Below, piece after piece: positions 10,607-27,882 of a stretch of DNA of 64,000 nt. Numbering within the stretch: position 1 is the stretch's first letter; each line of letters starts with the position of its first letter. The notes beneath the pieces are model-generated. The model saw only the letters and a list, made by a program, of their open reading frames with translations, had not been told where the DNA came from and made no database searches. Position numbers and translations under genes: made by a program. This stretch comes from Candidatus Cloacimonadales bacterium (GTDB lineage: Bacteria > Cloacimonadota > Cloacimonadia > Cloacimonadales > JAFGVF01). The stretch spans positions 1,152,001 to 1,216,000 of the forward strand of contig OY782781.1 in NCBI GenBank assembly GCA_963678315.1, in the 5' to 3' direction.

Positions 10607-11020
10607 TTACCAGAGAACCTTTCTAACTAGCACAGTAATTTTAGCATTTAGTTGTCTAGAATCAATATCTGAAACTCTATTACTAAATTTTATCCTTTCC
10701 TTGAATATATTTCTTCCTGGTTTGTAGTCGTAGTATTTAATAGTAGAGGTAATTAGATTCTTATCTTGGTCAAAGATTTCAATTCTAGTCTTTTGAGTAA
10801 TCTCCCTGTTTGATTGGTTTTCTATGCTAAAGTTAACTACCGCAGACTGCATATTTATCTCATCAAACATTATTGTTTGTTCATCTACTTTTAGAGAATT
10901 GACTGTTTTATTGCTACAATAAGAGTGGAGTAGTACTCCTATGATACATACTAAAAGAAAAAGTATCTTGTATTTAGATGAAATGTCTCTTTTTCTTCTG
11001 AAATCCGGTGCTTCAAACAT
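10607..11020 (-). CDS. Hypothetical single-pass membrane protein
   Basis: AGGAG RBS, one TM helix followed by beta-rich domain. Confidence 0.6.
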   Translation of the reverse strand: MFEAPDFRRKRDISSKYKILFLLVCIIGVLLHSYCSNKTVNSLKVDEQTIMFDEINMQSAVVNFSIENQSNREITQKTRIEIFDQDKNLITSTIKYYDYKPGRNIFKERIKFSNRVSDIDSRQLNAKITVLVRKVLW

Positions 11021-11050
11021 TTTTACTCCTAATTAAATCTTTTATATATT

Positions 11051-11079
11051 AAGATAAAAAAACATGACAAAGATGTCAA
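11051..11079 (-). promoter_or_regulatory. Sigma70-type promoter
   Basis: TTGACA-N17-TATCTT. Confidence 0.55.
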
Positions 11080-11180
11080 TATTAATCATAATTAGCCTAT
11101 AATATTTTGCTATGAAAGTAAAGAATAAATAAAATTAACTTGTCTATTAGTTTGTTTCTAATAAAATAAACACACAGACA

Positions 11181-11196
11181 AGGCACTGAAATTGCA
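11181..11196 (+). promoter_or_regulatory. Putative sigma54 promoter of C25 peptidase 1
   Basis: AGGCAC-TGAAA-TTGCA vs consensus TGGCAC-N5-TTGCW. Confidence 0.6.
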
Positions 11197-11278
11197 TATT
11201 TTAAATCTATATGTAAAAAAGAAGTATATTATTATACTAGGTTCACTTAGCTGTATTGTAGATAATAAGGGGAAATTA

Positions 11279-14200
11279 ATGAAGAAGTTATTCTTTTGTA
11301 TGTTTTGGATACTAATCTTAATAAGAGGGTTAAATTCAGAAATTGTTTCTATAGGATCTTTTGAGAATAGTGTTGATTTGTTGGAGGATACATCTGAATC
11401 AATCTCTTTAGAGATGAAGTTGGGTAGTTATAGCAGAGATAAGCTTTTAATTGCTGGTAAAGAATATTACAGTTTAGCATTGGAAGGTGAAGGACTTATC
11501 CTAGATAAGGGTGCTCCTCAGTTGCCAACATTAGCAAGAAGTTTAATTATAGATGATTATTCTTCATATACTTTAGATCTTGTAGCAAGTGAATTTATTG
11601 ATGTTAATCTTGCAATAGCTCCCTCAAAGGGTGTTTTAACAAGAGATATTGACCCAAATTCTATTCCTTTTGAATTTGGACAAGCTTACAAGAATGATAA
11701 GTTTTATCCTGACTCTATTACCAATCTATCTTCTCCATACATAATGAGGAATCTCAGAGGGCTTACAGTCAAATTTAATCCTATACAATATAATCCAGTT
11801 AGCGGAATAACAAGAATTTACACTTCTATCAAAGTAAAACTTATGAAGTCTAAATCGCAAGGAATTAATATTCTCACTAGAAAGGCTCAAAGAAATAGCT
11901 CATTTGACTTTATTCAAAGAAATCATTTCTTGAACTATAGTGAAGATAGATATGAATCTCTTAGTGAAGTCGGTTCTATGATGATAATTGCACCAGCTAA
12001 CTACTTCAATACTTTACAGCCTTTTGTTAATTGGAAAAGGGATAAAGGAATCAGGGTCAGTTTAATTGATGTTGCAACTATTGGGAATGACAGCAATCTA
12101 ATAAAGACTAGTATTCAAAATTACTACAACAACGATAACAACTTGACTTATGTCTTATTAGTTGGTGATGCAAACCAGCTAGCAAGTCCAAGTGTTAGCG
12201 GTGGGGGATCAGATCCTTCTTATTCATTAGTAGCAGGTGACGACTCTTATCCTGATATTTTGATTGGTAGGTTTTCAGCAGAGAATACTTCTCAATTAGC
12301 TACTCAAGTGGAAAGAACAATTGCCTATGAGAGAGATATAAATAGCACTGTTACTCATCTAAACAAAGCTATAGGTATTGCTTCTTCTCAAGGAGGTGTA
12401 ACTAATGGCGATATGGGCGAATCTGATATTGAACACATGAACTTAATTAGAGAAGATTTGTTAGCCTATAACTATACTAGTGTAGATCGAATTTATGACC
12501 CAAGTGCTAGTGCTTCTAATGTAGCTTCTGCCTTAGAAGAAGGTAGAGCTTTTGTTAATTATGTTGGTCATGGTTCAACTACATCATGGGGGACTACTGG
12601 CTTTTCTAACAGTCATATCAATAATCTCTCTAATGTTGAAAAGCTTCCTTTCATTGTTTCAGTAGCATGTGTAAACGGTAATTTTGTTTCTAACACTTGT
12701 TTTGCAGAAGCATGGCTTAGGGCAACTAACAATGGTGACCCAAGTGGAGCTATAGCTATTTATGCATCATCAATTAATCAAAGCTGGAATTCTCCTATGA
12801 GAGCTCAAGATGAAATAACTGATTTACTGGTTTCAGAACAGCTAACAACTATTGGAGGTCTCTTTTATAGTGGCTCTTGTCAAATGATTGATACTTATGG
12901 AACAGATGGAATTGAGATGTTTAAAACATGGAATATTTTTGGTGACCCTTCATTGCAGGTAAGGACTAATACTCCACAAGAAATTATAGTAGAACATTCA
13001 GGATCAATTAACTCAAATTCTTTAGAATATACTGTAAATACAAATACGGAAAATGCTCTTGTTAGTTTGACTTATGACCATGAAATACTTGGAACAGGCT
13101 ATACAAGTAGCACAGGGTCAATTACTTTGCAGTTAGAAGAACTACCTGTAAACATAGTTGACTTGACACTTACAGTGACTGCTTTTAACAAAAGTTCTTA
13201 TCAAGCACCAGTGACTATGCTTGCATCTGATGGGGCATTTGTTACTATAGAGTCTACTCCTTCAAGTATTCTTTTCAACCATAATGGCGATTTCTCCTTA
13301 TCAATACAAAATTCAGGTAGTCAATCGGCATCAGAACTTACCCTTTCATTAACTTCTTCTAGTCCTTATGTTATCATCAATGATGCTGTTGAAAGAGTAA
13401 TGTCATTGGAAGTTGGAGAAATTATCTCACTTTCACAAGATGCTTTTGATATAAGGATAATCAATAATCCTCCAAATGATGAGATAATAAATTTTAATTT
13501 ATATATTGCGAATAATAATAATAGTTGGGATGATTCATTTAATCTACAAACAATTGCCCCAGACTTTGAAATTGGGACAGTTGATTATTCTGAACTAGTT
13601 GGTAATAGTGATAATATGATACAATCGGGGGAATCTATTAAGTTAGAAGTTCCAGTGCTAAATCATTCAAATTTAACTTTATCTAATATCCCTGTAACAA
13701 TAAATATTAACAGTCTCAATGCTCAAGTATCAGAGAGAACTTTTATTATTGAATCATTGCCCGCTAACAGTAGCCAACAATGTGAGTATTTTCTTTCTAT
13801 AGCAGATTATGTAACAAATAATGCAGAACTAAATGTATCAATCAATGTTGATTATCGTGATTATAGTGAAAGTGATTATTGGACTGCTTATATTAACCTT
13901 AATGCTGAAGATTTCGAGAGTCTAGATTTAGCCTTCTTTAATTGGCAAACAACAGGTGGGGATTATATATTTACTTCTGATGCTTATGATGGTTCTTATT
14001 CTCTGCAATCTCCTGATATTAATAACGATGATGTAACATCAATCAGCACAGAGTATGCATCTACACAAGATGGAAATATTAGTTTCTTTTTAAAAACATC
14101 AACTGAAAGCAATTATGATTTTGTTAGATTTTACATAGATAATGTAGAATATTTAGAAACAAGTGGAAATAGTAACTGGCAAGAATACTCATACCCTGTT

Positions 14201-14533
14201 AGTGAAGGTAATCATGTTTATAAATGGGAGTATGTAAAAGATTATATAGTTAGTAGTTATAATGATTGCTTTTACTTGGATAATATTTCTTTTCCTGGAA
14301 ATAATCTTGATTCGCATATTACTCCAACAACACCAAATAATATAAGTATACAAGTTTCTGAGAATACTACAAGATTAACTTGGGAAGCTTCTGAATATGC
14401 TACATATTATCGCATTCTTGCTAGTGATAATATCAATGGTGATTATGTTATTTTACAGGAAGTGAGCGAAACAAGCTGCACTTTTTCTAATGATAGTAGA
14501 TATAAATTCTTTAAGATTATTGCATCAAATTAA
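11279..14533 (+). CDS. C25 family (gingipain-like) cysteine peptidase 1, FN3-like C-terminus
   Basis: Start reassigned to ATG 11279 (AAGGGG RBS, signal peptide); propeptide, LLVGD, GRFSAE, catalytic YVGHG and VACVNG, IFGDPS. Confidence 0.9.
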   Translation: MKKLFFCMFWILILIRGLNSEIVSIGSFENSVDLLEDTSESISLEMKLGSYSRDKLLIAGKEYYSLALEGEGLILDKGAPQLPTLARSLIIDDYSSYTLDLVASEFIDVNLAIAPSKGVLTRDIDPNSIPFEFGQAYKNDKFYPDSITNLSSPYIMRNLRGLTVKFNPIQYNPVSGITRIYTSIKVKLMKSKSQGINILTRKAQRNSSFDFIQRNHFLNYSEDRYESLSEVGSMMIIAPANYFNTLQPFVNWKRDKGIRVSLIDVATIGNDSNLIKTSIQNYYNNDNNLTYVLLVGDANQLASPSVSGGGSDPSYSLVAGDDSYPDILIGRFSAENTSQLATQVERTIAYERDINSTVTHLNKAIGIASSQGGVTNGDMGESDIEHMNLIREDLLAYNYTSVDRIYDPSASASNVASALEEGRAFVNYVGHGSTTSWGTTGFSNSHINNLSNVEKLPFIVSVACVNGNFVSNTCFAEAWLRATNNGDPSGAIAIYASSINQSWNSPMRAQDEITDLLVSEQLTTIGGLFYSGSCQMIDTYGTDGIEMFKTWNIFGDPSLQVRTNTPQEIIVEHSGSINSNSLEYTVNTNTENALVSLTYDHEILGTGYTSSTGSITLQLEELPVNIVDLTLTVTAFNKSSYQAPVTMLASDGAFVTIESTPSSILFNHNGDFSLSIQNSGSQSASELTLSLTSSSPYVIINDAVERVMSLEVGEIISLSQDAFDIRIINNPPNDEIINFNLYIANNNNSWDDSFNLQTIAPDFEIGTVDYSELVGNSDNMIQSGESIKLEVPVLNHSNLTLSNIPVTININSLNAQVSERTFIIESLPANSSQQCEYFLSIADYVTNNAELNVSINVDYRDYSESDYWTAYINLNAEDFESLDLAFFNWQTTGGDYIFTSDAYDGSYSLQSPDINNDDVTSISTEYASTQDGNISFFLKTSTESNYDFVRFYIDNVEYLETSGNSNWQEYSYPVSEGNHVYKWEYVKDYIVSSYNDCFYLDNISFPGNNLDSHITPTTPNNISIQVSENTTRLTWEASEYATYYRILASDNINGDYVILQEVSETSCTFSNDSRYKFFKIIASN

Positions 14534-14584
14534 CTAATGATTTAATATATATTTTTTATCGTTTATCAATTGACTTTAAGGTCG

Positions 14585-15268
14585 TCCTTACTTGCCACCT
14601 TGAAAAAAAGCCGATTTTTCAAGGAGACCAGTAAGGATGGAGTTAGAAGTGGGGAGTGAGGAGTTGGGACAGGACAAACTGGGAACGCTTTGCCTTTAGT
14701 CCGGCTACTGCCGGATAGCCGGCTAAACACTGGGAACGCCAGCCTCGGTGCTGGCAAAAAGGAATTAGGAGTGTAAGCATCCACCGATAGGTTGAACAGA
14801 GTTCATGCTTACGCAAAGTAAAGTGTTTTTTCGTAGCCAAGGATGGCTACAATCCCAGAGTAGAGGCGTTTAGCATAACGTCTCAAACACTTCTATTATC
14901 ACCCAGGGTTGAAACCCAGGGCTCTTTGTTGATTAACCCTTACAGGGTATCAAAGGATTTGAGATTTAAGCCATCAATCTAGCCTGTCACCGTCGTTGCT
15001 TACGAAGTGGTTTTTTGGGTTGCAAACAACAGTCTTCGCCTGTCACGGTCCCTGCTTGCGAAACATCATTCAAAATGAATGATGTAAGGTATTTCTCTTT
15101 AAACATGCAAGCATGTTTAAAGATGCGCATTCAGGGATGAATGCACCCCAGAAGATAAAGATGCGCATTCAGAAGTGACCGTAATCGGCGAAGACGATTG
15201 AATGCACCCCATAAGAAAGGGAGTGTTAGCATCCAAAAATCCTATGGCAAGCAAGATGCTTGCGCACC
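14585..15268 (+). repeat. REP-like mosaic cluster B (largest, more than 12 hairpin modules)
   Basis: GC-rich intergenic island; modules shared with clusters A, C, D, E, F; 14678-14723 is the exact reverse complement of 51019-51064. Confidence 0.9.
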
Positions 15269-15420
15269 AGATAATGATGACGTTCTGACTAACTTAAAGG
15301 TTGAGCAGGATATTAATTGAATATTGAATTGTAATTAAATATATATAATAAATAATTTTAGCTCTTGAATATTGCATTTCAGTGGTTATTTAGTTTGACA
15401 TAAAATTACTAAATCAATAT

Positions 15421-15436
15421 TGGTATCTATCTTGCA
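15421..15436 (+). promoter_or_regulatory. Putative sigma54 promoter of C25 peptidase 2
   Basis: TGGTAT-CTATC-TTGCA (GG-N10-GC) about 55 nt upstream of ATG. Confidence 0.6.
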
Positions 15437-15489
15437 TATATAAATGTAATAGAAATTAAATAAAATAATATAAACTTAGGAGGAAGCTG

Positions 15490-18400
15490 ATGAAAAGAAG
15501 CTTAGTGATGATCTTAGTACTCATGGTTGCTTTAGTATCTTTGAATTCTGAAGTAGTAAGAGTTGGTACTACAGACAATGACGTGAAATTGATTGAATCT
15601 AATAGTAACCAAACTATTTTGGAGATGGAGCTTGGTTATTTTAACAAGAACCATGTAATTATTAACGGACAAGAATTTAACACATTAGACCTTGCTAAAG
15701 AAGGTAAAACTTATGAAACTGGAGCTCCTGAAGTTCCAACAATGACAAGATCTATTATAATTGATAATTCTTCTAAACCAGAAATGAGAATTATTGAATC
15801 TGAATACACAGAAATCGAATTAGCTGTTGCACCATCAAAAGGTGTGATTACTAGAGATATCGATCCTGCAACAGTTCCTTATACTTTTGGAACAGAATAT
15901 AATAATGATGAATTTTATCCATCAAATATAGCTACTTTGGGCGATGCTTATATTATGAGATCTGTTCGTGGTGTAGCTGTAAGATTCAACCCAATTCAAT
16001 ACAATCCAGCTAGTGGCGTGTTAAGAGTTTACACTTCAATCAAAGTTGCGGTTGCAAATTCTAATGTTACTGGTGAAAATGTTTTAACCAGAGCAGCAAA
16101 GAATGTTGAATCATTCGATTTTATTTATAAAAATCATTTCTTAAACTATGATGAAAACAGATATGCTCCACTTAATGAAATTGGTTCTATCTTAGTTATT
16201 GCTCCTGCTAACTACCATGCAACAATGCAAGATTATGTAGATTGGAAAATCCAAAAAGGTATTCCAACTGAAATGGTTGATGTTGCTACAATAGGTAATA
16301 ACACAACTAATATCAAAAACTATATCCAAGACTACTATGATAATCATGATGATTTTGCTTTTGTACAAATCGCTGGTGATGCTAGCCAAGTTGCTACTTT
16401 AAGTGTTTCTGGTGGTGGTTCTGACCCTTCATACTCATTAGTTGCTGGTAATGACTCTTACCCTGATATCTTCATCGGAAGATTCTCAGCTGAAACAACA
16501 GCTCAATTAGCTACTCAAGTTGAAAGAACAATCGCTTATGAAAGAGATATTAATACAACAGCTACTTATTTGAATAAAGCTACTGGTATTGCTTCATCTC
16601 AAGGTGGTGGTTCACAAGGTGATATGGGCGAATCTGATATTACTCACATGAACTTAATCAGAGATGACTTATTAGGCTATAACTATGTATCAGTTGACCA
16701 AATATATGATCCTTCTGCTTCAGCATCTCAAGTTGCTACTGTTGTTAATCAAGGTAGAGGTTTCATGAATTATGTTGGTCATGGTTCTGATGACTCATGG
16801 GTTACTTCAGGTTTCTCATCTAGTCATGTTAATAACTTAACTAATGTAGATATGCTTCCATTTATCGTTTCTGTTGCTTGTGTGAATGGTAACTTTGTAT
16901 CACAAACTTGTTTTGGTGAAGCTTGGTTAAGAGCTACTCATAATGGCGATCCTACTGGTGCTATGGCTATTTATGCTTCTACTATCAACCAATCATGGGA
17001 TTCTCCTATGAGAGGTGAAGATGAAATCACTGACCTATTGGTATCAGAAGAATTATCTTCTATCGGTGGTTTATATTATAGTGGTTCATGTGAAATGATT
17101 GATGCTTATAATGCAGATGGTATTGAAATGTTTAAAACATGGCATATCTTTGGTGATGCATCTCTTCAAGTAAGAACTGATGTACCTACTGAAATGACTG
17201 TTTCCCATACTGGTATCTTATTTGTTGGTATGAATGAATATTCAATCAATGCTGGTGTAGCTAATGCTTTAGTTTCTGTTACATATAACAATGAAATTTT
17301 AGGTTCAGGATACACAGATGCTTCTGGTAACATTGATCTTTTACTTGAAAACCTTCCTGCAAATGTAGTAGACTTAAATCTTACAATTACAGCTTTAAAT
17401 AAAGTTACATACAATGGTATCATATCTATCACAGCAGCAGAAGGTGCTTATGTAGTTGTTGATGAATATAATCCAGAAATTATGTATAATCATGATGGTA
17501 GCTATACACTTAACATAAAGAATGTTGGTGTTGAAACATCTTCAAACTTAACTGCAACTTTAACTACAGATGATGCTAATGTAACTATCATTGACGGTTC
17601 TGAAGATATCGCTTCTGTTAATGCTGATGAAATAGTGTCTTTACCTGCTGATGCATTTAACTTTACTTTAGCTAATTATCCAGAAAATGGACAAACAATA
17701 GAATTTAATGTGAACATTTCTAATGCAAGCGATGAATGGAACTATCCTGTAAACTTAACAGTTCAAGCTCCTCAATTATCAATTGAAGAAATTACTGCTG
17801 AAGAAGTAGACGGTAATGGTAATGGTAGAATGGATGCTGGTGAAACTTTCGAAATCACTGTTCCTGTACAAAACTATGCTAATGTTCCTGCTGGTGAAAC
17901 TCAAGTTGAATTAACATTCCCACTTGGTTCTGTTGCTGTTGCTGAAAACATTATTACTGAAACTGAAATTCTTCAAAATAACTATAACTTAGTTACTTTC
18001 ACTGCTGTTCTTAGCTCACAAATTCCTGCTGGTACTCAAGTAGACTTCTCTGCTCAAGCTACATTTGAAGGCTATACAGCTACTGGTGAATATACAGACT
18101 TTGTTGGTCTATCTGTTGAAGGCTTCGAAACACAATCTCTTGATGGTTTTGGTTGGGAAACTACAGGTGGAACTTATTCATTCTCAACAGACGCTTATGA
18201 AGGAACATATTCTTTACAGTCTGCTGAAATAGCTAATTCTGCTACAACAACTCTTAGTGTTGATTACGAATCATCTATTGATGGTGAAATTTCCTTCTTT
18301 ATGAAAGTTTCTACAGAAGCAAATTATGATTATGTGAAGTTCTATATTGATAATGTACAAAAAGTTGAACTTTCTGGCGCTGTAAATTGGGCTGAATACA

Positions 18401-19179
18401 GCTACAATGTAGCTGCTGGTGAACATACTTATAAATGGGAATATAGTAAAGACTACATGGTTGCTTCAAACGATGATTGCTTCTATCTAGACCTTGTTAC
18501 TTTCCCTGCTTCAGGTGGTGGTGCGACAGGTAATCCAGAAATTGCTATTGATGTTACTGATTACGATTTCGGAATGATTCAAGTTATTCCTGAAGAAGAC
18601 ACTTCAGTTTCTTTAGATTTAGTAATTGAAAATACTGGTGATGGAATGTCTTTGGGTACTATTGAAATTCCAGCTCCTTTCTATGCAAGAAATGACAATG
18701 AAGAATTAGTTAACTCTAAATCATTTACAGTTGATGCTGGCTCAACTACAACTATCGAGCTTGTATTTGCTCCAACTACAGCTGATGTATTTAATGAAGT
18801 TGCTACAGTTACAACTGATGATGTTGATAACCCTACATTCGAACTAGCTCTTGCTGGTGAATCTATTGGAACTCCTAATGCTGGTAATGATTTAGTTCCT
18901 GCTGTTACTTCTTTAGAAGGTAACTATCCTAACCCATTCAACCCTGAAACTACTATTAAATATGGTTTAAATAAGGGTGGAAAAGTTAGAATCGATATCT
19001 ATAACCTTCTTGGTCAAAAAGTGAAAACTCTTGTTAATGAAGACCAGTCTGCTGGTTATCATTCTGTTGTATGGAACGGTAAAGATAACAACAATAGAAA
19101 TGTTGCTTCAGGCGTATATTTCTACAAAATGAAATCTGTTGGCTATAATAAAACAGCTAAAATGATTCTTATGAAATAG
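15490..19179 (+). CDS. C25 family (gingipain-like) cysteine peptidase 2 with T9SS-type-A/FlgD-Ig C-terminal domain
   Basis: AGGAGG RBS, signal peptide, YVGHG and VACVNG, Ig-like domains, NYPNPFNPETTI...KMILMK. Confidence 0.92.
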   Translation: MKRSLVMILVLMVALVSLNSEVVRVGTTDNDVKLIESNSNQTILEMELGYFNKNHVIINGQEFNTLDLAKEGKTYETGAPEVPTMTRSIIIDNSSKPEMRIIESEYTEIELAVAPSKGVITRDIDPATVPYTFGTEYNNDEFYPSNIATLGDAYIMRSVRGVAVRFNPIQYNPASGVLRVYTSIKVAVANSNVTGENVLTRAAKNVESFDFIYKNHFLNYDENRYAPLNEIGSILVIAPANYHATMQDYVDWKIQKGIPTEMVDVATIGNNTTNIKNYIQDYYDNHDDFAFVQIAGDASQVATLSVSGGGSDPSYSLVAGNDSYPDIFIGRFSAETTAQLATQVERTIAYERDINTTATYLNKATGIASSQGGGSQGDMGESDITHMNLIRDDLLGYNYVSVDQIYDPSASASQVATVVNQGRGFMNYVGHGSDDSWVTSGFSSSHVNNLTNVDMLPFIVSVACVNGNFVSQTCFGEAWLRATHNGDPTGAMAIYASTINQSWDSPMRGEDEITDLLVSEELSSIGGLYYSGSCEMIDAYNADGIEMFKTWHIFGDASLQVRTDVPTEMTVSHTGILFVGMNEYSINAGVANALVSVTYNNEILGSGYTDASGNIDLLLENLPANVVDLNLTITALNKVTYNGIISITAAEGAYVVVDEYNPEIMYNHDGSYTLNIKNVGVETSSNLTATLTTDDANVTIIDGSEDIASVNADEIVSLPADAFNFTLANYPENGQTIEFNVNISNASDEWNYPVNLTVQAPQLSIEEITAEEVDGNGNGRMDAGETFEITVPVQNYANVPAGETQVELTFPLGSVAVAENIITETEILQNNYNLVTFTAVLSSQIPAGTQVDFSAQATFEGYTATGEYTDFVGLSVEGFETQSLDGFGWETTGGTYSFSTDAYEGTYSLQSAEIANSATTTLSVDYESSIDGEISFFMKVSTEANYDYVKFYIDNVQKVELSGAVNWAEYSYNVAAGEHTYKWEYSKDYMVASNDDCFYLDLVTFPASGGGATGNPEIAIDVTDYDFGMIQVIPEEDTSVSLDLVIENTGDGMSLGTIEIPAPFYARNDNEELVNSKSFTVDAGSTTTIELVFAPTTADVFNEVATVTTDDVDNPTFELALAGESIGTPNAGNDLVPAVTSLEGNYPNPFNPETTIKYGLNKGGKVRIDIYNLLGQKVKTLVNEDQSAGYHSVVWNGKDNNNRNVASGVYFYKMKSVGYNKTAKMILMK

Positions 19180-19203
19180 TATCATTTGAACTATAGATAA
19201 ATT

Positions 19204-19240
19204 AAAGCCTACAACTCTCGAGTTGTAGGCTTTTCCTTTT
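19204..19240 (+). terminator. Intrinsic terminator
   Basis: AAAGCCTACAACTC/GAGTTGTAGGCTTT stem plus T-rich tail. Confidence 0.85.
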
Positions 19241-19253
19241 GGTAAAAGCAAAC

Positions 19254-19390
19254 TGGGATTGTAAGCTTCCCAGCTTACGAAAGTGTTTAGGATTGTAAGC
19301 TACAGTCTTCGCCTGTCACAGTCCCAGCTTACGAATCTATATAGCGTAAGCATGAACTTTGTTCAGCCTATCGGCGGATGCTTACACTCC
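19254..19390. repeat. REP-like mosaic cluster C
   Basis: Tandem empty and filled GGATTGTAAGCT...TCCCAGCTTACGA units, then inverted GGAGTGTAAGCATCC module. Confidence 0.85.
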
Positions 19391-19425
19391 ATCTCTGGCA
19401 ACGAAAAGGGTTTGAATTAATTAAT

Positions 19426-19453
19426 TTGACATATATTGGGAGATAATTATAAT
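19426..19453 (+). promoter_or_regulatory. Sigma70-type promoter
   Basis: TTGACA-N16-TATAAT. Confidence 0.65.
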
Positions 19454-19479
19454 ATGATAAACTTCTAAATGGAGGAAAT

Positions 19480-20877
19480 ATGGCAACTAAAAAAGTAATT
19501 AAAGAAACAAAAACCAGAAACTTCATAGGTTATAAAAGAGAACACGCAGAGTTCCACAATGCTTATACTATATCTTCAGTTGAGAAAGATATCAAATTCT
19601 TAAAAGTTGTTTATGGAGATGATTTCCCATTATCAGAAGAAAATGTAGATGCTATCTTGATTGAGAAATTAAGGAAATTAGGTAAAGAAATTTATTTCTT
19701 TATTTCATCATTAACATTCGGGACTACTCCCCAGATTTATATAAAACGTAAATATGAATTTATCAAAAATACAATTCCTGTGAATGAAAGATACCTTTTC
19801 TTTTTAGCATGGAATGGCTTAACTAATAATGATTCCTTCAAAAAGCTATTAAGACAAAAGTTTGGTTTAGAACAGTTCTATTCTGATGTATGTCCGCAAA
19901 ATATACCAAGTATAGGATCAGTCCTCACTCGCTATAGATCTAAGTTTGTTTTGGCTATGGATATGGCTCAAAACCCAGATGGGACTAAGAGAACTCAAGG
20001 ACGCCAACTTGACGATGGTTCAGGATTGACCATGAGAGAGAAGATAGTCTGGTTACCGAATGGTAAATCAATTCCTCTTTATCCAAATGCCTATGTACCA
20101 CTTAATCAAACTCAGGTTATATTGGTTAGGCATGGCAAGTCTATTCATGAATCTGGTGGTGATAACCCTGAATTTGTTGGTTCTGGCTATTGGGATTCTT
20201 GGAAAGAGAATCGAAGAGTATCTAAGTCTATTGGGAATTCATTGAAAGAAGATGGAATTCAAACAGCAAAGAATTTAGGTCAAGATTTCAAGGTTGCAGT
20301 AGACACACTTCAAAAAGAAGGATATTTATTCTGGCCTTACGCTAAAGAAAACCCTATAACTGTCTATGGAAGTGAATCAGAGAATACAGAGCAAACTTCT
20401 CGTTACTTTTTGGCAGGAGCAAACTATACAAATATAAATTTCCAAGCAATATATGGATTAAACTCACAGAAATACGGAGCTCTTACTCATAAATACAAAA
20501 ATGAAGTATTTGAGAAAGTTGTAGAAATCTATGGTGAAACATGGGCAGGTACAAAAGAAAGTAAGTTAGCAAAAGCAAAGAAGATGTTCAAAAATAGATT
20601 TTATCATTTCCCAGAAGGGGAGACCTTGATAGAAGCTGATTGGCGCATTGCTCATAGCTTCGTTCAATTGCTCAAAGAAAACCAAGGTAAAAGAGTGCTT
20701 TTATGCGACCATTCTGGTGCTATAAGAGTGTTCGAAGCTATCATAAGGACATTAGATTTTGCTGATTATAGTTCATTGAAGGAAGGACAAGATTCTATCA
20801 TTGCTCTTATCTATCAACCAGGACTGAATGTTCGTTACGATTACTTACAACGTAAAGATTTTAAACTTAGAAAATAA
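19480..20877 (+). CDS. Histidine phosphatase (phosphoglycerate mutase-like) family protein with long N-terminal extension
   Basis: ILVRHGKS at about aa 215, FPEGET, VLLCDHSGAIR. Confidence 0.75.
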   Translation: MATKKVIKETKTRNFIGYKREHAEFHNAYTISSVEKDIKFLKVVYGDDFPLSEENVDAILIEKLRKLGKEIYFFISSLTFGTTPQIYIKRKYEFIKNTIPVNERYLFFLAWNGLTNNDSFKKLLRQKFGLEQFYSDVCPQNIPSIGSVLTRYRSKFVLAMDMAQNPDGTKRTQGRQLDDGSGLTMREKIVWLPNGKSIPLYPNAYVPLNQTQVILVRHGKSIHESGGDNPEFVGSGYWDSWKENRRVSKSIGNSLKEDGIQTAKNLGQDFKVAVDTLQKEGYLFWPYAKENPITVYGSESENTEQTSRYFLAGANYTNINFQAIYGLNSQKYGALTHKYKNEVFEKVVEIYGETWAGTKESKLAKAKKMFKNRFYHFPEGETLIEADWRIAHSFVQLLKENQGKRVLLCDHSGAIRVFEAIIRTLDFADYSSLKEGQDSIIALIYQPGLNVRYDYLQRKDFKLRK

Positions 20878-20885
20878 GGATATAA

Positions 20886-21845
20886 ATGCTTAAAACACAT
20901 TACTATCGTGAAGATAATGATTTCCAAGAGAAGATTAGTGAACTTCTCGGAAAACAACATAGAATAACTATAAGTAAAGACATACCTCAAGATACAGAAG
21001 TTCTTATCTTGGGGTATCCTTCTAAAGATAAACTAGATTCACTTCCTAAGCTAAAAGCTCTTGTCATTCCCTTTGCAGGAATACCTGCTTCTACCAAAGA
21101 ATTAATGAAGCAGTATCCAGATTTAAAAGTCTATAATATCCATCATAATCATAGAGTCGCTGCTGAAATGGTTATAGCTATGCTTCTAACAGGTGTTAAG
21201 CATATAATACCTGCTGATAAAGACTTTAGAAAGCATGATTGGAGTATTCGTTATGGAGAGAACCCTTCTCTGCTTTTATATCAAAAGAAAGCTCTAATTT
21301 GTGGTTATGGGCATATCGGTAAATTAGTTGCTGAATTCTTGAAGGTCTTCGGTGTGAAAGTTGATTATATTCGAAGGAATGAAAGAGACCCTAGCATTGG
21401 CTGTTACAAGCTAATAGATTTACCTGTGATAGTTGAAGAATATGATTTTGTAATTAATGTTCTTCCTGCTACTAGTGAAACTGAGAGTGTTTTCAATAAA
21501 CAAGTCTTCTCTAAAATGAAGAAATCTAGCTTCTTTGTTAATATTGGTCGAGCTTCTACTGTTGATGAACAAGCATTATATGATGTTCTCAAGAATAAGA
21601 AAATACTTGGGGCTGCTCTTGATGTATGGTATAATTACCCTAAAACAATAGAAGAGAGAAGCAATACCAAACCGACTAACCTTCCTTTTCATGAACTAGA
21701 TAATTTGATTATGAGTCCACACCGAGGAGGAGGACTTGGTATGCAGGAAAACGAAACATTTAGATTGCAAGAATTGGCAGACTTGCTTCAGAAGATAGAA
21801 AAAGGTGATCAGGTAAGAGCAATAAACTTAGAGCTTGGATATTAA
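20886..21845 (+). CDS. D-isomer-specific 2-hydroxyacid dehydrogenase
   Basis: GYGHIG, FVNIGRA, ALDVWYNYP, MSPHRGG. Confidence 0.9.
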   Translation: MLKTHYYREDNDFQEKISELLGKQHRITISKDIPQDTEVLILGYPSKDKLDSLPKLKALVIPFAGIPASTKELMKQYPDLKVYNIHHNHRVAAEMVIAMLLTGVKHIIPADKDFRKHDWSIRYGENPSLLLYQKKALICGYGHIGKLVAEFLKVFGVKVDYIRRNERDPSIGCYKLIDLPVIVEEYDFVINVLPATSETESVFNKQVFSKMKKSSFFVNIGRASTVDEQALYDVLKNKKILGAALDVWYNYPKTIEERSNTKPTNLPFHELDNLIMSPHRGGGLGMQENETFRLQELADLLQKIEKGDQVRAINLELGY

Positions 21846-22016
21846 ATAATCAAGTTTATAAAAAAATATATTTACACAATTAATTAAAGTATCACAATTT
21901 ACATGATTTAGAATTATCTCTAATTCAAAAAAGGAACATTTGCAAGTAATGTTGATATTATTCAACTATAACTTCCATATTGTTAATGAGCTTATAATGG
22001 CAGAGGTTAGAACATT

Positions 22017-24155
22017 ATGGTTAGAAAAACTTTAAAGAGATTTTATATTTATATCATTTCATGGATATTGCTAAGTATTATTCTAATAGTTGTAAATCAA
22101 TCTTCCTTTATAAAAGAGGTTGAGAATAGGACTCTAGATTATAGATTTAGTAATTATTCCTTAGCTGAACAAGCTGATACAAATATTGTCTTGATTTCTA
22201 TAGACGATCAAAGCTTGAGGTATGCTAATGAAAAGGGCGTATTTTGGCCTTGGCCTAGAGAGTTTTATGCTTTAGCAACTAACTACTTAAGTAATTGTGG
22301 TGCAGAACAAGTTATATTTGATATTCAGTTTAATGAGCCGGATTATAATAGGGGAGATATTGATTCTGAAGCTAGTGATAACTATTTTGCCAACGTAATA
22401 AAGAACAGTGGAAATGTTATATTATCTAGTCAAGCTCTATTAGGAGAAAGTAAGATAGATGTTGAAACAGGAATTAATACCCTCAATATTGAAGGTATTA
22501 ATATTCCTTTAACAGATAACTTTAACCAGTTGAGCCTTCCTATAAAGAAATTCAGAGAGAATTCTTTGGGGGTTGGAATTATTAACATTTCACCAGATGA
22601 TGATGGTGTTGTGAGAAGAGTTCCTTTATTCTACAAAATTAATGGCCAATATTACCCGCAGTTAGCTTTTCTATCATTTCTAAAATCTTCACAGAATAAT
22701 ACATTGCAATACAAACATCAAAGCATTGCTACTGACAAAATAGATATACCAATTCTGCATGAACAAGATTATCTGATTAATTGGTATGGAAATGGTGGAG
22801 TAGAAGGTGTTTTTAAATATATCCCATATAGCAATCTTATTCAGTCTGCTGTTGCAACTTCAAGCGATAAGGAAGCTGTTCTTAATCCTGAATTGTTTAA
22901 AGGTAAGACAGTAATTATTGGAGCAACAGCTCCAGGACTCTTTGACTTGAAGACCTCACCAGTTACAAAGGTCTTGCCTGGTATGGAGATTTGGGCAACA
23001 ATCATAAGTAACTTGCGCAATGGTCATTTCATTAAAACGGTTCCAGGTCATCTTGTTAATATCTCAATAATATTATTAGTTGCACTCACTATAATTTCTT
23101 TATTGCATCAAAGAGCTGTAATTTCTCACTTATTCTTGTTGATTGAGATTGTTGTTGTAAATATGCTTATAATTGGTTTGTGGACCCATTATAGGTATTT
23201 ATTGCCATGGGTAATCTATATTATTACAATTGTTTTAACTTATCTGACTGTCTTATTAGTAAAATACCTAGCTGAAGGTAGAGACAAGCAGAAACTGAAA
23301 AAGATATTTACAAGATATATTCACCCTGACCTGGTTAACATTCTCATTAATAATTCAAAAGACTTCGAGTTAGGTGGTAAGGAAGTAGAAGCGACTATTC
23401 TCTTTACGGATATTTATGATTTTACTACTTATTCAGAAAATAAAACTCCTAAAGAACTTGTTACTGAGCTTAACAAATATTTCGAAACTATTACAGATAT
23501 TATCTTGAAGAATCAAGGTATGTTAGATAAGTTTACTGGTGATGGACTAATGGCTCTTTTTGGCTCTCCTTTAATAAGCCTTGATCATGCTTATCTGGCA
23601 TGTAAAGTTGCTTTAGAACACCGTTCTTATACAGAGAGTTTGAGCCCTGATGATGATGGCTATTATTTCAATAAAATGACAAGGATTGGTATTAATAGTG
23701 GTCTTGTTGTGGTAGGGAACATTGGTTCTTCAAAGCGAACAGATTACACTGCTATTGGCGATGCAGTAAACTTATCAGCAAGAATAGAAGGCGTTAACAA
23801 GCTATTTAAAACTTCTATCATTATTGGAGAATCCACTCAGAAGCTGATAAAAGATAGGTTTATATGTCGTGAATTAGATGTTCTGAAAGTTAAAGGTAAG
23901 AATGAGCCTACAAAGATATTTGAACTTATTGACGAGCTTGGTAAGAAAGATAAAGATGAACTTATTGCAAGCTATGAAGAAGCTTTAATGTTGTATAAGC
24001 AAGGACATTTCTTGCAGGCTAAGAATAAATTTGAAGATTTATATAATAGTAAATATAGTGATTATCCTTCACAGGTAATGGCAAGTAGATGCCAGTTTTT
24101 AATAGATAATCCTCCTAAAAATTGGGAAGGAATATTCACTCTAAAAGTTAAATAG
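22017..24155 (+). CDS. CHASE2-domain class III adenylate/guanylate cyclase
   Basis: IDDQS, WPWPR, DDDGVVRR, 3 TM helices, FTDIYDFT, DKFTGDG, YTAIGDAVNLSARIEG. Confidence 0.93.
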   Translation: MVRKTLKRFYIYIISWILLSIILIVVNQSSFIKEVENRTLDYRFSNYSLAEQADTNIVLISIDDQSLRYANEKGVFWPWPREFYALATNYLSNCGAEQVIFDIQFNEPDYNRGDIDSEASDNYFANVIKNSGNVILSSQALLGESKIDVETGINTLNIEGINIPLTDNFNQLSLPIKKFRENSLGVGIINISPDDDGVVRRVPLFYKINGQYYPQLAFLSFLKSSQNNTLQYKHQSIATDKIDIPILHEQDYLINWYGNGGVEGVFKYIPYSNLIQSAVATSSDKEAVLNPELFKGKTVIIGATAPGLFDLKTSPVTKVLPGMEIWATIISNLRNGHFIKTVPGHLVNISIILLVALTIISLLHQRAVISHLFLLIEIVVVNMLIIGLWTHYRYLLPWVIYIITIVLTYLTVLLVKYLAEGRDKQKLKKIFTRYIHPDLVNILINNSKDFELGGKEVEATILFTDIYDFTTYSENKTPKELVTELNKYFETITDIILKNQGMLDKFTGDGLMALFGSPLISLDHAYLACKVALEHRSYTESLSPDDDGYYFNKMTRIGINSGLVVVGNIGSSKRTDYTAIGDAVNLSARIEGVNKLFKTSIIIGESTQKLIKDRFICRELDVLKVKGKNEPTKIFELIDELGKKDKDELIASYEEALMLYKQGHFLQAKNKFEDLYNSKYSDYPSQVMASRCQFLIDNPPKNWEGIFTLKVK

Positions 24156-24163
24156 GAGTAATT

Positions 24164-25405
24164 ATGAGGTTCTTGTTATTGTTGTTTTGTTTGTTATGTT
24201 TTGTATTGGTTTCTGCAGAAACATTAGATATAAAAAGGGATAAAACCCCTCTACGAGAAGGAGCTGGATCTTGGTATGAAGTAATCGAGTTAATTCAGAA
24301 AGGTGAGCGAGTTGAAACTGTTGCTTACTCAGATGATAATCAGATTACTAATCAGTGGTTAAAAGTTAAGTACAATTCTAAAGTTGGTTTTATTTCTGTT
24401 ATATCAACCAAAGAACTTAAGCCTAAAAAAGACATTTTTTCTAATTTTGCTGAGGGTAAGCCATCTACTATTGCGACTAAGCATGGTGTTTCAGCTGGTG
24501 TAAAAGGATTTGGAGAAAGATTCTGTTCTACATTTAAAGTTAGCCCAAAATTCATTGAGTATGCTCAAAGCTATAATATAAATCCTAGAGACTATAAAAA
24601 GTTTAAACTAGACACTTACAAAGGCTTTTGGATACGTAAGAATAGGAAGAAAGTTGATTTAGGTGATAAATTTCATGAAGAATATTTCACAGAGTCAGAA
24701 CGAGGATTAGGTTTAGGTATTGCATCTGTTATATCTCAGCAAGGATTAGTTAAAAACAAAAAGCTTCAAGATTACGTTAATTTTGTGGGATTACAGCTTG
24801 TCGAAGCTTTTGATTTAAGTGAGATAGAATTCAAGTTCTTTATATTGGATATTGATAATCCTAACGCTTATGCAACTACAGGAGGAGTAGTCTTTATTAC
24901 TAAAGGAATGCTTAACTTATGCCAAAATGAAGCAGAATTATCTCTGATTCTCGCTCATGAAATAGCACATGTTGCCTATAATCATGGTATGCAAGAAACT
25001 CTAGCAAGAAAAACAGATATATTAGCTGATTCTAGCTTTGATGAATTAGACAAGGAATTTGGGAACTCAACTAGTCGTTATAAAGACCTAGAAGCAGAAC
25101 TTGAAGAAGATGCCTTTAAAATATATGAAACCTTGATTCATGGTAGATTAGATGCCTATGAGTTAGAAGCTGATCAGATGGCGATATTAGTTACTGCTCG
25201 TGCTGGATATAATGCTAATTTAATGCCGAAAGTTCTTGACAGACTAATCAATAATAGCGTAAAATCAAATAATGAGCACTACCGACCTGATATTCTTGTT
25301 ACACGCAAAAAGCAAGTAGAAAAGTTCTTGAAAAGTAGACCTTTACCTAGTAACCTAATGATTCATCAAGAAAGATTTGATAAATTTATACAATTACTAG
25401 ACTAA
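24164..25405 (+). CDS. Secreted SH3-like + M48 metallopeptidase
   Basis: Signal peptide, LREGAG...WLKV (SH3b-like), PNAYA..GG, LAHEIAH, ELEAD. Confidence 0.85.
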   Translation: MRFLLLLFCLLCFVLVSAETLDIKRDKTPLREGAGSWYEVIELIQKGERVETVAYSDDNQITNQWLKVKYNSKVGFISVISTKELKPKKDIFSNFAEGKPSTIATKHGVSAGVKGFGERFCSTFKVSPKFIEYAQSYNINPRDYKKFKLDTYKGFWIRKNRKKVDLGDKFHEEYFTESERGLGLGIASVISQQGLVKNKKLQDYVNFVGLQLVEAFDLSEIEFKFFILDIDNPNAYATTGGVVFITKGMLNLCQNEAELSLILAHEIAHVAYNHGMQETLARKTDILADSSFDELDKEFGNSTSRYKDLEAELEEDAFKIYETLIHGRLDAYELEADQMAILVTARAGYNANLMPKVLDRLINNSVKSNNEHYRPDILVTRKKQVEKFLKSRPLPSNLMIHQERFDKFIQLLD

Positions 25406-25471
25406 TGGTTATATAAAGAATGGATTCATTATTAGGAGGAAGTGATATAGATTAATTAAAAAAGGACTCTT

Positions 25472-26662
25472 ATGAATAGAATAATGATATTTATCGCTTT
25501 GTTAAGTTTGTGTGCAATCTTACAATCACAAAGCCTCGCTGATATGAACTTTGGAGATTCAGCTTCTTTGGATATAATGACATGGAATATAGAATGGTTT
25601 CCTAAAAATGGTCAGACTACAGTTGATTCCGTAGCAACAGTCTTAGAAGCTCTAGATATGGATATTTATGCTATTCAGGAAGTGGATGATACACTCGCAT
25701 TTAGGGAAATGGTTAATGAGCTAGATGATTATTCTTGCTTCTTTGAATCAAGTTATTTTGCAGGTCTTGCTTATATCTATAAGACAGATGAAATACAGAT
25801 TCATTATATTGAAGAAATATATACTTCTTACCCTTATTGGAGACCTTTCCCACGTTCTCCAGTAGTAATGAAATTTCTCTACAATGGTCAGATTTTCTAT
25901 GTGATGAACAATCATTTCAAGGCAATGGGGGATGGACATTTAAACCTAAGTGATGAATGGGATGAAGAGACCAGGCGTTATGATGCTAGTCTTCTTATCA
26001 AAGAGTATATAGATGATGATTTACCTAATGCTAATGTGATAGTATTAGGTGATTTAAATGATATTCTTACTGATGAAGAAGATGATAATGTTTTCCAATG
26101 TTTTTTGGATGATGAAGAGAATTACCTCTTTGCAGATTACGAAATAGCTACTAGCTCTAGTTCAGAATGGTCCTATCCAGGTTGGCCTTCTCATCTGGAC
26201 CATATACTTGTAACTAACGAGGTTTTTACTCCCAACAGTAATGTAATTACTCAAACCCAAACATTGAAGATTTATGAGTATATGCAAAGCTTTTCTCAAT
26301 ATGACTCCTACATTTCAGATCATTTACCTGTAGCAATTAAGATAATTGCTGCTACAGATAACGATGATTCTCAAGTTTGTACTAACGCTTCTTTCAATCT
26401 AACAAACTATCCAAATCCATTCAATCCTGAAACTACAATATCCTTTAATAATCCTAGTTCTGGTCATGTTAAGTTGACTATTTTCAACATTAAGGGGCAA
26501 GTTCTTGCAACAATTATCAATAGCAAGCTAGCTAAGGGACAACATAATTTTGTTTGGAATGGAAAGGATAGCAATGGGAATCAAGTTTCATCAAATATCT
26601 ACTTTGCAAAAGTTGAAAGTAAGGACGCTTCAGAGATTCATAAAATAATATTATTAAAATAA
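25472..26662 (+). CDS. Secreted endonuclease/exonuclease/phosphatase with T9SS-type-A/FlgD-Ig CTD
   Basis: TWNIEWF, IQEV, GDLN, LDHIL, SDHLPV; NYPNPFNP...KIILLK. Confidence 0.88.
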   Translation: MNRIMIFIALLSLCAILQSQSLADMNFGDSASLDIMTWNIEWFPKNGQTTVDSVATVLEALDMDIYAIQEVDDTLAFREMVNELDDYSCFFESSYFAGLAYIYKTDEIQIHYIEEIYTSYPYWRPFPRSPVVMKFLYNGQIFYVMNNHFKAMGDGHLNLSDEWDEETRRYDASLLIKEYIDDDLPNANVIVLGDLNDILTDEEDDNVFQCFLDDEENYLFADYEIATSSSSEWSYPGWPSHLDHILVTNEVFTPNSNVITQTQTLKIYEYMQSFSQYDSYISDHLPVAIKIIAATDNDDSQVCTNASFNLTNYPNPFNPETTISFNNPSSGHVKLTIFNIKGQVLATIINSKLAKGQHNFVWNGKDSNGNQVSSNIYFAKVESKDASEIHKIILLK

Positions 26663-26834
26663 GATTACTTAAGAATATTTGCTTTTGAGAGGATATATTA
26701 TAAAGACATTCTTATTTGCTAAAGCATATATTTATAAATGATTATTCTCAACGGGGAATGTTGAGTAATTTAGCTTTGTAATCAATGAAATTTATTTAAG
26801 AAGAACTTAAATTCAGTCTTAATTGAGTTTTTTA

Positions 26835-26863
26835 TTGACAATAAGCAAAATTAACTTTATATT
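26835..26863 (+). promoter_or_regulatory. Sigma70-type promoter of oxidative-stress operon
   Basis: TTGACA-N17-TATATT. Confidence 0.65.
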
Positions 26864-26895
26864 ATTTATATAAAAAAACTAATTAGGAGGAAATT

Positions 26896-27276
26896 ATGAC
26901 AAAATTAAGAGAAATATACCATTGCCCTAAATGTGGTAACGTGGTTGAATTAGTATATCCTGGTGCTCCAGCACTTGTTTGCTGTGGAGAACCAATGAAT
27001 TTATTAGAAGGTAAAACAGCAGATTCTGCAACTGAAAAGCATGTTCCTGTTGTTGAAGAAAAAGACGGCGGTGTATTAGTAACAGTTGGTTCAACTCTTC
27101 ACCCTATGACTGAAGAACATCACATAGCTTTTATTGAAGTATTAACAAAAGATATGGTTTATAGAGCTGAATTAGATAAAACTGGTGAACCAAAGGCATT
27201 CTTCAATGTTAAGAAAGCTGACGTAATTGAAGTAAGAGAATACTGTAACCTTCATGGTTTATGGAAAAAACTATAA
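26896..27276 (+). CDS. dfx: Desulfoferrodoxin (2Fe superoxide reductase)
   Basis: CPKCGN...CCGEPM, EKHVP, HPM..EHHI, YCNLHGLW. Confidence 0.96.
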   Translation: MTKLREIYHCPKCGNVVELVYPGAPALVCCGEPMNLLEGKTADSATEKHVPVVEEKDGGVLVTVGSTLHPMTEEHHIAFIEVLTKDMVYRAELDKTGEPKAFFNVKKADVIEVREYCNLHGLWKKL

Positions 27277-27291
27277 AAAAGAGGTAAAATA

Positions 27292-27882
27292 ATGAGTTTA
27301 AAAGGTACAAAAACTGCAGAAAATTTGATGAAAGCATTTGCTGGTGAATCACAAGCTAAAAATAGATACACTTATGCTGCTAAAACAGCTAAAAAAGAAG
27401 GTTTTGAACAAATTTCAGCTCTCTTTATGGAAACAGCATTAAATGAAGAAGAACATGCTAAATTATTTATGAAACACATGGTTAATAATGGTCTTGAAGG
27501 TCAAGCAATTGAAATCACTGCTGCTTACCCTGCAGCTTGGGCTCAAAAAGATACATTACAAAATTTACAATACGCTGCTGATGGCGAACATGAAGAATGG
27601 GATGAATTATATCCTGAATTCGCTAAAGTTGCTGATGAAGAAGGTTTCTCAGCTATTGCAGCAACTTTCAGACTTATTGCAAAGATTGAAAAACATCATG
27701 AAGAAAGATACAGAAAACTATTCAATGCTGTTAAAGCTCATGAAATGTTTAAAAAAGATGGTAAAGTATTCTGGAAATGCAGAAAATGTGGACATATTCA
27801 TGAAGGTCTTGAAGCTCCTGAAAAATGCCCTACATGTGCACATCCACAAGGATACTTTGAAGTTTTGTGTGAAAACTATTAA
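27292..27882 (+). CDS. rbr: Rubrerythrin
   Basis: [27 protein letters not shown]...CPTC. Confidence 0.96.

Follow-up and report, generated by a model that had tools for sequence, protein, structure and literature searches.

Empty and filled hairpins in the window

We analysed a 64,000-nt stretch of the genome of a Candidatus Cloacimonadales bacterium (hereafter the window), in which a 20-nt module sits in the loops of some copies of a short palindromic repeat and is missing from others. The genome (G000) is a single 2,988,751-bp contig with 32.8% G+C, and the window corresponds to G000:1152001-1216000; positions given without the prefix are those of the window. At 19256-19280 (+) lies an empty hairpin resembling a repetitive extragenic palindrome (REP), with the leader GGA, the 5' arm TTGTAAGCT, the loop TCCC and the 3' arm AGCTTACGA. 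The next copy, at 19290-19334 (+), consists of the same 25 nt except for an insert, ACAGTCTTCGCCTGTCACAG (19302-19321, +), which separates the 5' arm from the TCCC loop and has no duplicated flank. Because the first and last bases of the insert are unlike the adjoining host bases, its edges are unambiguous. This insert is the consensus form of the module, ACAG-TCTTCGC-CTGT-CACAG. An earlier note on this DNA had described the pair as one hairpin without and with an exact 20-nt insert, and our analysis agreed with it in both structure and coordinates.

Folded as DNA, the empty hairpin had a free energy of -5.8 kcal/mol (z -4.7) and the filled one of -5.9 kcal/mol, the mini-stem of the insert being stacked on the intact outer stem. 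An independent contig from run X1, which is probably the source sample, spanned 18929-19373 with zero differences. On the minus strand, positions 19344-19387 hold an inverted partner REP of the GTGTAAGCA family, whose loop carries a different, 22-23-nt module with two hairpins; together with 19290-19334 it forms a doublet like those called REPINs (REP doublets forming hairpins). A GC-rich hairpin followed by a T-run (19198-19235) resembles a terminator and ends the plus-strand open frame 15490-19179; the REP cluster begins about 20 nt behind it.

Searching the window for the 20-mer with up to three mismatches returned 3 matches, compared with 0 in 100 shuffled sequences. Variants with one mismatch (15029-15048) and two mismatches (50666-50685) occupy the equivalent position in diverged hosts, as the earlier note had claimed. 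Their hosts are filled REPs at 15017-15061 (+; arms TTGCAAACA and TGCTTGCGA, module ACAG..CTGT CACGG) and 50653-50698 (+; arms CAGCAAGCA and TGCTTGCGA, module ACAG-TCTTAGC-CTGT-CAAAG), respectively. A degenerate copy, previously placed near 14975-14995, was located at 14974-14992 (+; TCAA-TCTAGC-CTGT-CACCG); it belongs to the TCAG-TCTAGC-CTGA-CACGG subtype, is 19 nt long, sits in a decayed host and has a paralogue at G000:329613. The minus-strand empty host, previously given as 14831-14856, occupies 14831-14852 (loop TCCT) and belongs to the TTGTAGCCA family. A fourth full copy, absent from the earlier note, lies at 15179-15198 (-; ATCG-TCTTCGC-CGAT-TACGG) within a filled REP of the GTGCATTCA family (15163-15207, -), which adjoins an empty REP of the same family (15125-15146, -; loop TCCC). 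Nearby, a GTGTAAGCA-family REP (14771-14814, +) carries the other, 22-23-nt loop module.

Module anatomy and host repeats across the genome

Across the genome, we found 14 exact copies of the 20-mer and 50 copies within four mismatches. A structure-aware scan (loop at most two edits from TCTTCGC, at least three of four stem pairs, tail at most one mismatch from CACRG) yielded 73 sites, compared with 9 in a reversed-sequence control. These comprised 47 in full REP loops, 10 with the 3' REP arm only, 6 in a miniature inverted-repeat transposable element (MITE; named MITE C here), 3 in another palindromic repeat, named hairpin B, and 7 elsewhere, the last group consisting of two truncated REPs and five weak, chance-like sites. 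We took 68 copies as real, representing 31 distinct sequences. All 47 copies in complete REPs had one orientation and one position, between the 5' arm and TCCY. Open frames of 200 aa or more contained none of the 66 context-assigned copies (REP, half-REP, MITE C or hairpin B).

The earlier note had also stated that the insert folds on itself. The 68 copies support this stem through compensatory changes: pair 1 was A-T in 37 and T-A in 25 copies (C-G in 1), pair 2 was C-G in 57 and T-A in 10, pair 3 was A-T in 49 and C-G in 16, and pair 4 was G-C in 65. Overall, 92.7% of stem cells were paired, compared with 71.5% when 3' arms were shuffled, and the observed value was reached in 0 of 2000 shuffles. 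The fold was weak when taken alone (-0.8 kcal/mol as DNA, z = -0.5), and the case for the mini-stem therefore rests on covariation, the isolated hairpin being thermodynamically negligible. The loop reads T-C-T-[T/A]-[C/A/T]-G-C, with positions 1, 3 and 6 invariant across the 58 copies having a 7-nt loop, and the tail reads C-A-C-[A/G]-G. A stem that is free to vary as long as it pairs, next to a fixed loop and tail, is the pattern that would be expected of a hairpin read by a protein.

The module edges were similarly regular. The base right after the module was T in all 68 copies, and the base before it was A in 55 and T in 13. Left flanks ended in CA (47 copies), CT (7), AA (6), AT (6) or GA (2), and right flanks began with TCC in 54 copies and with another T-initial triplet in the rest. 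The module had neither terminal inverted repeats nor a target-site duplication and so does not qualify as a MITE. We found no match in Rfam to the module, the REPs, MITE C or hairpin B.

The REP hosts share one plan. After GG-N comes a stem of 9 bp, whose second pair is a T·G wobble; a TCCY loop caps it, and the return arm follows. On both strands together we counted 216 hairpins matching N9-TCCY-N9 in which no fewer than 8 of the 9 positions pair, compared with 7-65 for control loops counted on one strand, and the excess was concentrated in a few stem families. Counted with the leader included, empty (short-loop) and filled copies numbered 44 and 4 in the TTGTAAGCT family, 33 and 8 in the TTGTAGCCA family, 7 and 8 in the TTGCAAGCA family, 12 and 3 in the TTGTAAGCA family, and 7 and 7 in the GTGCATTCA family, respectively. 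In total, these five main stem families provided about 110 empty and about 57 filled hairpins, to which about 100 hairpins of the GTGTAAGCA family are added. The hosts are thus short extragenic palindromes at high copy number, as expected of REPs and REPINs. One identical host, TTGTAAGCT-TCCC-AGCTTACGA, is filled with the ACAG subtype of the module inside the window and, at G000:846738 and 846793, with the TCAG subtype. Many REPs stand in tandem arrays in which filled and empty units have been copied together; at G000:846726-846908, both members of a duplicated unit pair are filled, and a neighbouring pair, otherwise alike, is empty.

The GTGTAAGCA family had 106 copies, about 100 of which carried the 22-23-nt loop module and only 5-6 the short TCCC loop. 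These REPs usually lie inverted beside other REPs, giving REPIN-like doublets. Their loop module follows TCC and consists of ACCGATAGGT and TGAAC-nnn-GTTCA; the window holds copies at 14771-14814 (+), 19344-19387 (-) and 28985-29027 (+). Both of its small stems show compensatory variants (GCC/GGC, ACCC/GGGT and TGAAG/CTTCA). A dense array at G000:846400-847460 combines 35-nt empty REP units with composite units of about 106 nt, in which the 3' portion of a second REP (AAGCCCAGCTTACGA) comes after an inverted GTGTAAGCA REP; these composite units look as if REPs had been joined within their loops. At G000:694600-699250 and 814400-816420, the left neighbour of the 20-nt module is not a REP arm but another small unit (GCCGGCACGGA...), and at G000:694713 it is a tail-less TCAGTCTTCGCCTGA hairpin. 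These non-REP left neighbours suggest further layers of nesting or the joining of half-sites.

Two hosts are not REPs. MITE C is a 165-nt element with inverted ends AACCCATNTNATNCAGTA that folds into one long hairpin (-36.7 kcal/mol as DNA), and it occurs at G000:1464516-1464682 and about 30 other places in the genome. Among 21 aligned copies, a 20-mer of the form TCCG-TCTAAGC-CGGA-CACGG was exactly present in 8 and absent in 13. The same alignment contained a 31-nt module, TGAG-TCTTCGC...CTCA-CAGG, exactly present in 12 copies and absent in 8. One truncated copy was left unscored for the 31-mer; dropping it left 20 copies, 7 with the 20-mer and 12 with the 31-mer, among which all four combinations of the two modules occurred (5, 2, 7 and 6 copies). 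The alignment left out nine copies of a third subfamily, 163-167 nt long and so without both modules.

On a tree of MITE C built with the module columns excluded, the program counted 7 changes for the 20-mer and 3 for the 31-mer; respecting only the three strongly supported (starred) branches, at least 3 and at least 2 changes were needed, respectively. The two main subfamilies were 18.7% apart in the body of the element, and their 20-mers were identical in 6 of 12 cross-subfamily pairs. Carriers of the 20-mer nevertheless retained the bases of their own subfamily at -10 and +2, so that a gene conversion tract would be hardly longer than the insert. In the folded element, the 20-mer site (41|42) and the 31-mer site (120|121) both fall in the stem, 4 bp apart on opposite arms.

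Hairpin B is a conserved imperfect palindrome of about 130 nt. Of its 12 aligned copies, 3 were filled between TATAA and TAC near the apex and 9 were empty, and one filled copy carried the exact 20-mer of the REP consensus.

The earlier note had interpreted the insert as a second-tier insertion element that targets REP hairpins. Its description of a discrete unit with exact edges, nested in repeats, held for the whole genome. The restriction to REP hairpins did not, since MITE C and hairpin B are also hosts and one site lies in the stem arm of a palindrome. The filled copies neither form a single host clade nor share a single context: several REP families contain both filled and empty members, and two non-REP hosts carry the module.

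Three further ideas were considered and dropped. Targeting of loops only was rejected because the insertion sites of MITE C are in the stem arms of a long palindrome. Deletion by slippage between direct repeats was rejected as an origin of the empty hosts: the module starts and ends with ACAG, one copy of which would remain, and empty sites have none. A pseudoknot pairing the GGGA leader with the TCCC loop appeared sterically unlikely and was set aside.

Direction of change and mode of spread

Among the genomes compared, this one alone represents its genus; the others came from the sister genus (seven genomes), the family and the order. MITE C was present in 6 of the 7 sister-genus genomes, with 17-42 scored matches each. 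Their end-to-end matches, among 150 of 241 matches listed, were 164-168 nt long, which is the length without both modules. Among the matches listed, none from the sister genus broke at the 20-mer site, and four matches in G000 started just behind it. Allowing up to two mismatches, we detected the MITE-type 20-mer 8 times in G000 and in none of the family's 11 other genomes. Because MITE C of the sister genus occurs only without the 20-mer, the 20-mer is a gain in this host. The outgroup genomes thus show the state without it to be ancestral for MITE C, and the 20-mer to have been gained in the lineage of this genome.

The REP-type 20-mer had 48 matches in G000 and 0-11 scattered matches in each of 120 other genomes of the order; a reversed-pattern control gave up to 5 matches in those genomes, so the REP-type matches there are mostly at noise level. 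Among 185,579 species genomes, we found only 29 single matches, in named organisms of other, mostly GC-rich groups, and among metagenome contigs only 34 loci, all of them single matches on contigs of 50-72% GC without REP flanks. As far as sequence searches reach, the 20-mer is shown to be restricted to this lineage. Empty REPs of the host type occurred at low copy number (5, 3 and 1) in three sister-genus genomes.

The 31-mer had a wider distribution. All seven sister-genus genomes contained it, with 3-17 copies each. Of 20 such loci, 10 were at the equivalent MITE C site, 8 occupied the loop of another hairpin repeat or of its variant form, and the remaining 2 had another context; the empty form of that other repeat had 24 and 10 exact copies in two of the genomes (G001 and G010, respectively). 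The 31-mer is therefore older than the 20-mer. Their shared plan of stem, TCTTCGC..., stem and CA(C)RG suggests, by resemblance, that the two belong to one small family of modules present in this bacterial family. At G000:2929475-2929758, three tandem units contain CTTCG-CTAAAGCTA-CGAAG, a perfect hairpin version of the inner part of the 31-mer.

We identified nine Y1_Tnp matches in the genome, three of them IS200-like (about 150 aa) and six similar to REP-associated tyrosine transposases (RAYTs; about 180 aa). Four or five of the six RAYT-like genes are clustered at 1.110-1.126 Mb, within 16 kb (G000:1110286-1126245) that lie about 26-42 kb upstream of the window. A few kilobases beyond them, at G000:1104220-1107614, are two of the three IS200-like genes. 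Other members of the family have 1-3 RAYT-like genes each. On either side of the RAYT-like gene at G000:1121498-1122016, REPs of the kind described here lie no more than 700 nt away, six of them upstream and five downstream, and one is filled. This is the REPtron arrangement of a RAYT gene between REPs, which none of the other five RAYT-like genes shows. The protein of the REP-flanked gene scored 54.4 bits with Pfam Y1_Tnp (cut-off 23), and its translation shows the HxH and Y motifs. As for the guide tetranucleotide GT[AG]G at the hairpins' 5' foot, it occurred as GTAG, paired with CTAC, only in the TTGTAGCCA family; the others had GTAA, GCAA or GCAT. We found no TnpB/Cas12f-type partner in the genome, and reverse-transcriptase matches at four loci.

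By cumulative GC skew, the replication origin lies at about 0.73 Mb and the terminus at about 2.0 Mb. Empty REPs had GG...TCCY as the leading-strand sequence in 98 of 108 cases, compared with 1047 of 1705 open frames of 200 aa or more, although arrays inflate the REP counts. Of the REP-hosted copies of the module, 45 out of 57 had one replication orientation, following the bias of their hosts.

A different repeat of this genome, Acido-Lenti-1 (RF01687), had 30 sites (G000:1103620-1105002 and 26 other places), of which 16 exceeded the gathering score. The IS200-like Y1 gene at 1104220-1104681 is flanked by four weaker copies, so that the "RNA motif" behaves in this genome as a Y1 transposase repeat would.

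Taking these results together, we best read the 20-mer as a lineage-specific, very small insertion module of REPs and other palindromic repeats. The difference between empty and filled hosts is real, and the module has been gained repeatedly, exactly and in one orientation at fixed points of several hairpin-forming repeats, with no target duplication. That it is a separately inserted unit we consider probable. We give about an even chance to the fuller account, in which a non-coding, non-autonomous insertion module was repeatedly placed in hairpin repeats and then amplified passively. The module would enter hairpin-forming repeats immediately 5' of a T, with a single orientation and precise edges, at a site that lies between the 5' arm and the TCCY loop in REPs, near the apex of hairpin B and in one arm of MITE C. 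It would then multiply passively with its host through the spread of REPs and REPINs or through tandem arrays; most copies probably multiply together with the host repeat.

The insertion step may act on folded single-stranded DNA, a suggestion that we draw from the strong replication-strand bias of the REP hosts, and could be carried out by an HUH Y1 enzyme, for which the six RAYT-like and three IS200-like proteins are candidates. Such an enzyme would recognise the module by its loop and tail, with one cut at CACRG|T and another at the 5' foot of the small hairpin. We hold the involvement of a Y1 enzyme only tentatively, as a possibility short of an even chance. Rather unlikely, in our view, is the stronger proposal that the hairpin and CACRG tail form the complete minimal substrate of a RAYT-family Y1 HUH enzyme, which would excise the 20 nt as a single strand and paste them 5' of T in exposed loops. 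If that proposal were true, the module would be the smallest DNA transposon known and the first nested mini-repeat of its type with an identifiable enzyme, and the 31-nt relative from two genera would be the older member of the module lineage.

Several observations weigh against an independently moving module. We found no convincing copy in unique DNA anywhere in the genome, all copies being inside other repeats, whereas free movement with so weak a target, [A/T]|T, should have left copies in other places too. No direct link joins the module to any of the nine Y1 genes. The best NCBIfam match of the REP-flanked RAYT-like protein, REP_Tyr_transpos, reached 62.3 bits, below the cut-off of 80. 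Outside REPs there was no clear strand bias, with 5 out of 9 copies in MITE C and hairpin B in the leading orientation. The module has one 4-bp hairpin that starts at its first base, compared with the two subterminal hairpins of IS200/IS605 elements, and unlike these elements it has no conserved 4-5-nt target, only [A/T]|T. Filled and empty members of the GTGCATTCA family differ by the 20-mer and an extra loop TTC, and this difference is therefore not one clean event. The sequencing runs brought no evidence of recent movement. Six of them contain the window stretch, and we compared contigs of X1, X2, X5 and X6 over 9501-29500. Among the contig pieces listed, none bridged the repeat clusters except that of X1 over 18929-19373, and those for X2, X5 and X6 included none over 18964-19363, the contigs of these three sister-strain runs breaking at repeats. 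An indel of 20 nt was absent from the indels listed.

The tie between module subtype and host is a further such point, and it bears on how the copies arose. All 11 modules in TTGTAGCCA hosts were of the TCAG subtype, all 7 in GTGCATTCA hosts were ATCG, and all 8 in TTGCAAGCA hosts were ACAG or a one-base variant of it. Co-propagation of host and module predicts this, leaving only a handful of real insertion events; most copies probably came from amplifying hosts that were already filled. The same tie would fit an account in which filled hairpins are simply long-loop REP subfamilies, whose loop hairpin arose once or a few times and spreads only with whole REPs. Short and long self-complementary REP loops coexisting in one genome are described in a passage of PMC3733652, and many REPs here belong to tandem arrays in which filled and empty units were copied jointly. 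Yet the identical 20 nt occur in hairpin B and a close variant occurs in MITE C, neither of which is REP-like at the site; a single identical TTGTAAGCT host carries two module subtypes; outgroup MITEs are without the 20-mer; and the related 31-mer is found in three different hosts in two genera. We regard loop variation of this kind as improbable. Somewhat greater weight, although we still think it unlikely, goes to a module with no transposition of its own. Rare illegitimate events would have seeded it in each host, and it would then have passed between repeat copies through gene conversion, unequal exchange or template switching where hairpins stall replication. Recombination inside the module is attested by five chimeric copies (TCAG...CTGT), of which one lies in a hairpin whose arms come from two REP families. 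Such recombination could spread the module without transposition and also weighs against independent movement; the chimeras fit plain recombination as well as enzymatic cutting within or close to the loop. The doubly filled pair next to an empty one at G000:846726-846908 and the fact that every host is a multi-copy palindrome are in keeping with such recombination. It sits less well with the MITE carriers, which have kept subfamily-specific bases on either side of the insert, at 10 nt on the left and 2 nt on the right, and with the conservation of loop and tail while stems vary, which points to recognition by a protein. Moreover, seeding at least four unrelated hosts with equal edges and orientation would need a site- or structure-specific step anyway.

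Two other accounts were considered. The conserved loop and tail with compensated stems, and the position of all 66 context-assigned copies outside open frames of 200 aa or more, could mark a functional motif, such as a protein binding site on DNA or on a transcript, that is kept by selection and is not selfish DNA. Against this, the module was detected in this genome alone among 120 of the order and lies only within other repeats, with presence and absence varying among near-identical neighbours; it had no Rfam match at or below the gathering score, and the hairpin alone is thermodynamically negligible. We judge this account very improbable. Copying via an RNA intermediate and reverse transcription has reportedly been proposed for the small dispersed repeats (SDRs) of Nostoc. 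The reverse-transcriptase matches at four loci and the stem cells of G-U type, rare but tolerated, could be accommodated by such a route. However, no link joins these genes to the repeats, 20 nt without poly-A or a primer-binding feature are far below any known retroelement substrate, and the replication-strand bias of the REP hosts points to DNA-level processes, so we assign it the slightest chance of all.

The module among known small repeats

The closest likeness to the insertion module is with the Nostoc SDRs. Nostoc punctiforme and its relatives contain the families SDR1-8 (Elhai et al. 2008, Genome Res 18:1484), of which SDR4, SDR5 and SDR6 are the most relevant here. Such repeats are reportedly non-coding and about 20-27 nt long, nested in mini-transposons and in each other, and alike in a structure with compensatory changes. 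To our knowledge, they are the only repeats of insertion type near 20 nt with a detailed description, and no mechanism has been established for them. As in Nostoc, a module of about 20 nt occupies a fixed point of another repeat (47 of 47 complete REPs, MITE C and hairpin B), is nested, has a stem with compensatory changes, and has a mover that is not known in either case. The two differ in phylum and in hosts, the main hosts here being REP-like hairpins beside RAYT-like genes. In our case, unlike that of the Nostoc SDRs, the direction of change (gain) is supported by an outgroup. A passage of PMC4390886 puts SDR5 between bases 3 and 4 of HIP1, and one in PMC5861425 gives SDR-like repeats as reported only in Nostocaceae.

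The host repeats themselves resemble REPs, bacterial interspersed mosaic elements and REPINs, which parts of PMC3733652, PMC6006769 and PMC3116915 associate with RAYT (TnpA-REP) Y1 transposases. They are extragenic palindromes of about 22 nt, with some 100 or more copies in several stem families, they form inverted doublets and clusters, and they flank a RAYT-like gene. They depart from the canonical system in the RAYT-like protein, which is below the NCBIfam cut-off, and agree with it only in part in the 5' guide tetranucleotide GT[AG]G at the foot of the REP hairpin (PMC6006769), which one stem family has. REP families with alternative short and long self-complementary loops exist, as a part of PMC3733652 indicates. 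Unlike such loop variants, the extra loop hairpin here is common to different REP families and to non-REP hosts and is thus insert-like.

The module also has features of IS200/IS605 elements. We know of no described IS200/IS605 member that approaches 20 nt, all being far larger. Y1 HUH enzymes cut and rejoin single-stranded DNA beside hairpins, without duplications and with seamless excision (as outlined in a portion of PMC6006769). In the same way, the module is without target duplication or terminal inverted repeats, and filled and empty sites differ by exactly 20 nt. Its hairpin and short fixed 3' tail, ending at the element boundary, recall the right end of IS200/IS605, and the replication-strand bias of the REP hosts is as expected for single-strand processing.

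The literature searched, excluding supplements, contained no description of this module and, among the matches listed, no work joining Cloacimonadota with REPs or RAYTs. It is one of the smallest insertion-type DNA modules seen. Beyond the Nostoc SDRs, it offers another phylum, a sharply defined anatomy, an insert polarised by an outgroup, a related 31-nt module in several hosts of two genera, and nine candidate Y1 proteins in the same genome. Through these features, the movement of tiny modules becomes testable with oligonucleotides and purified proteins. For annotation, loop length is no ground for splitting or merging REP families when the loop difference is a separate insert.

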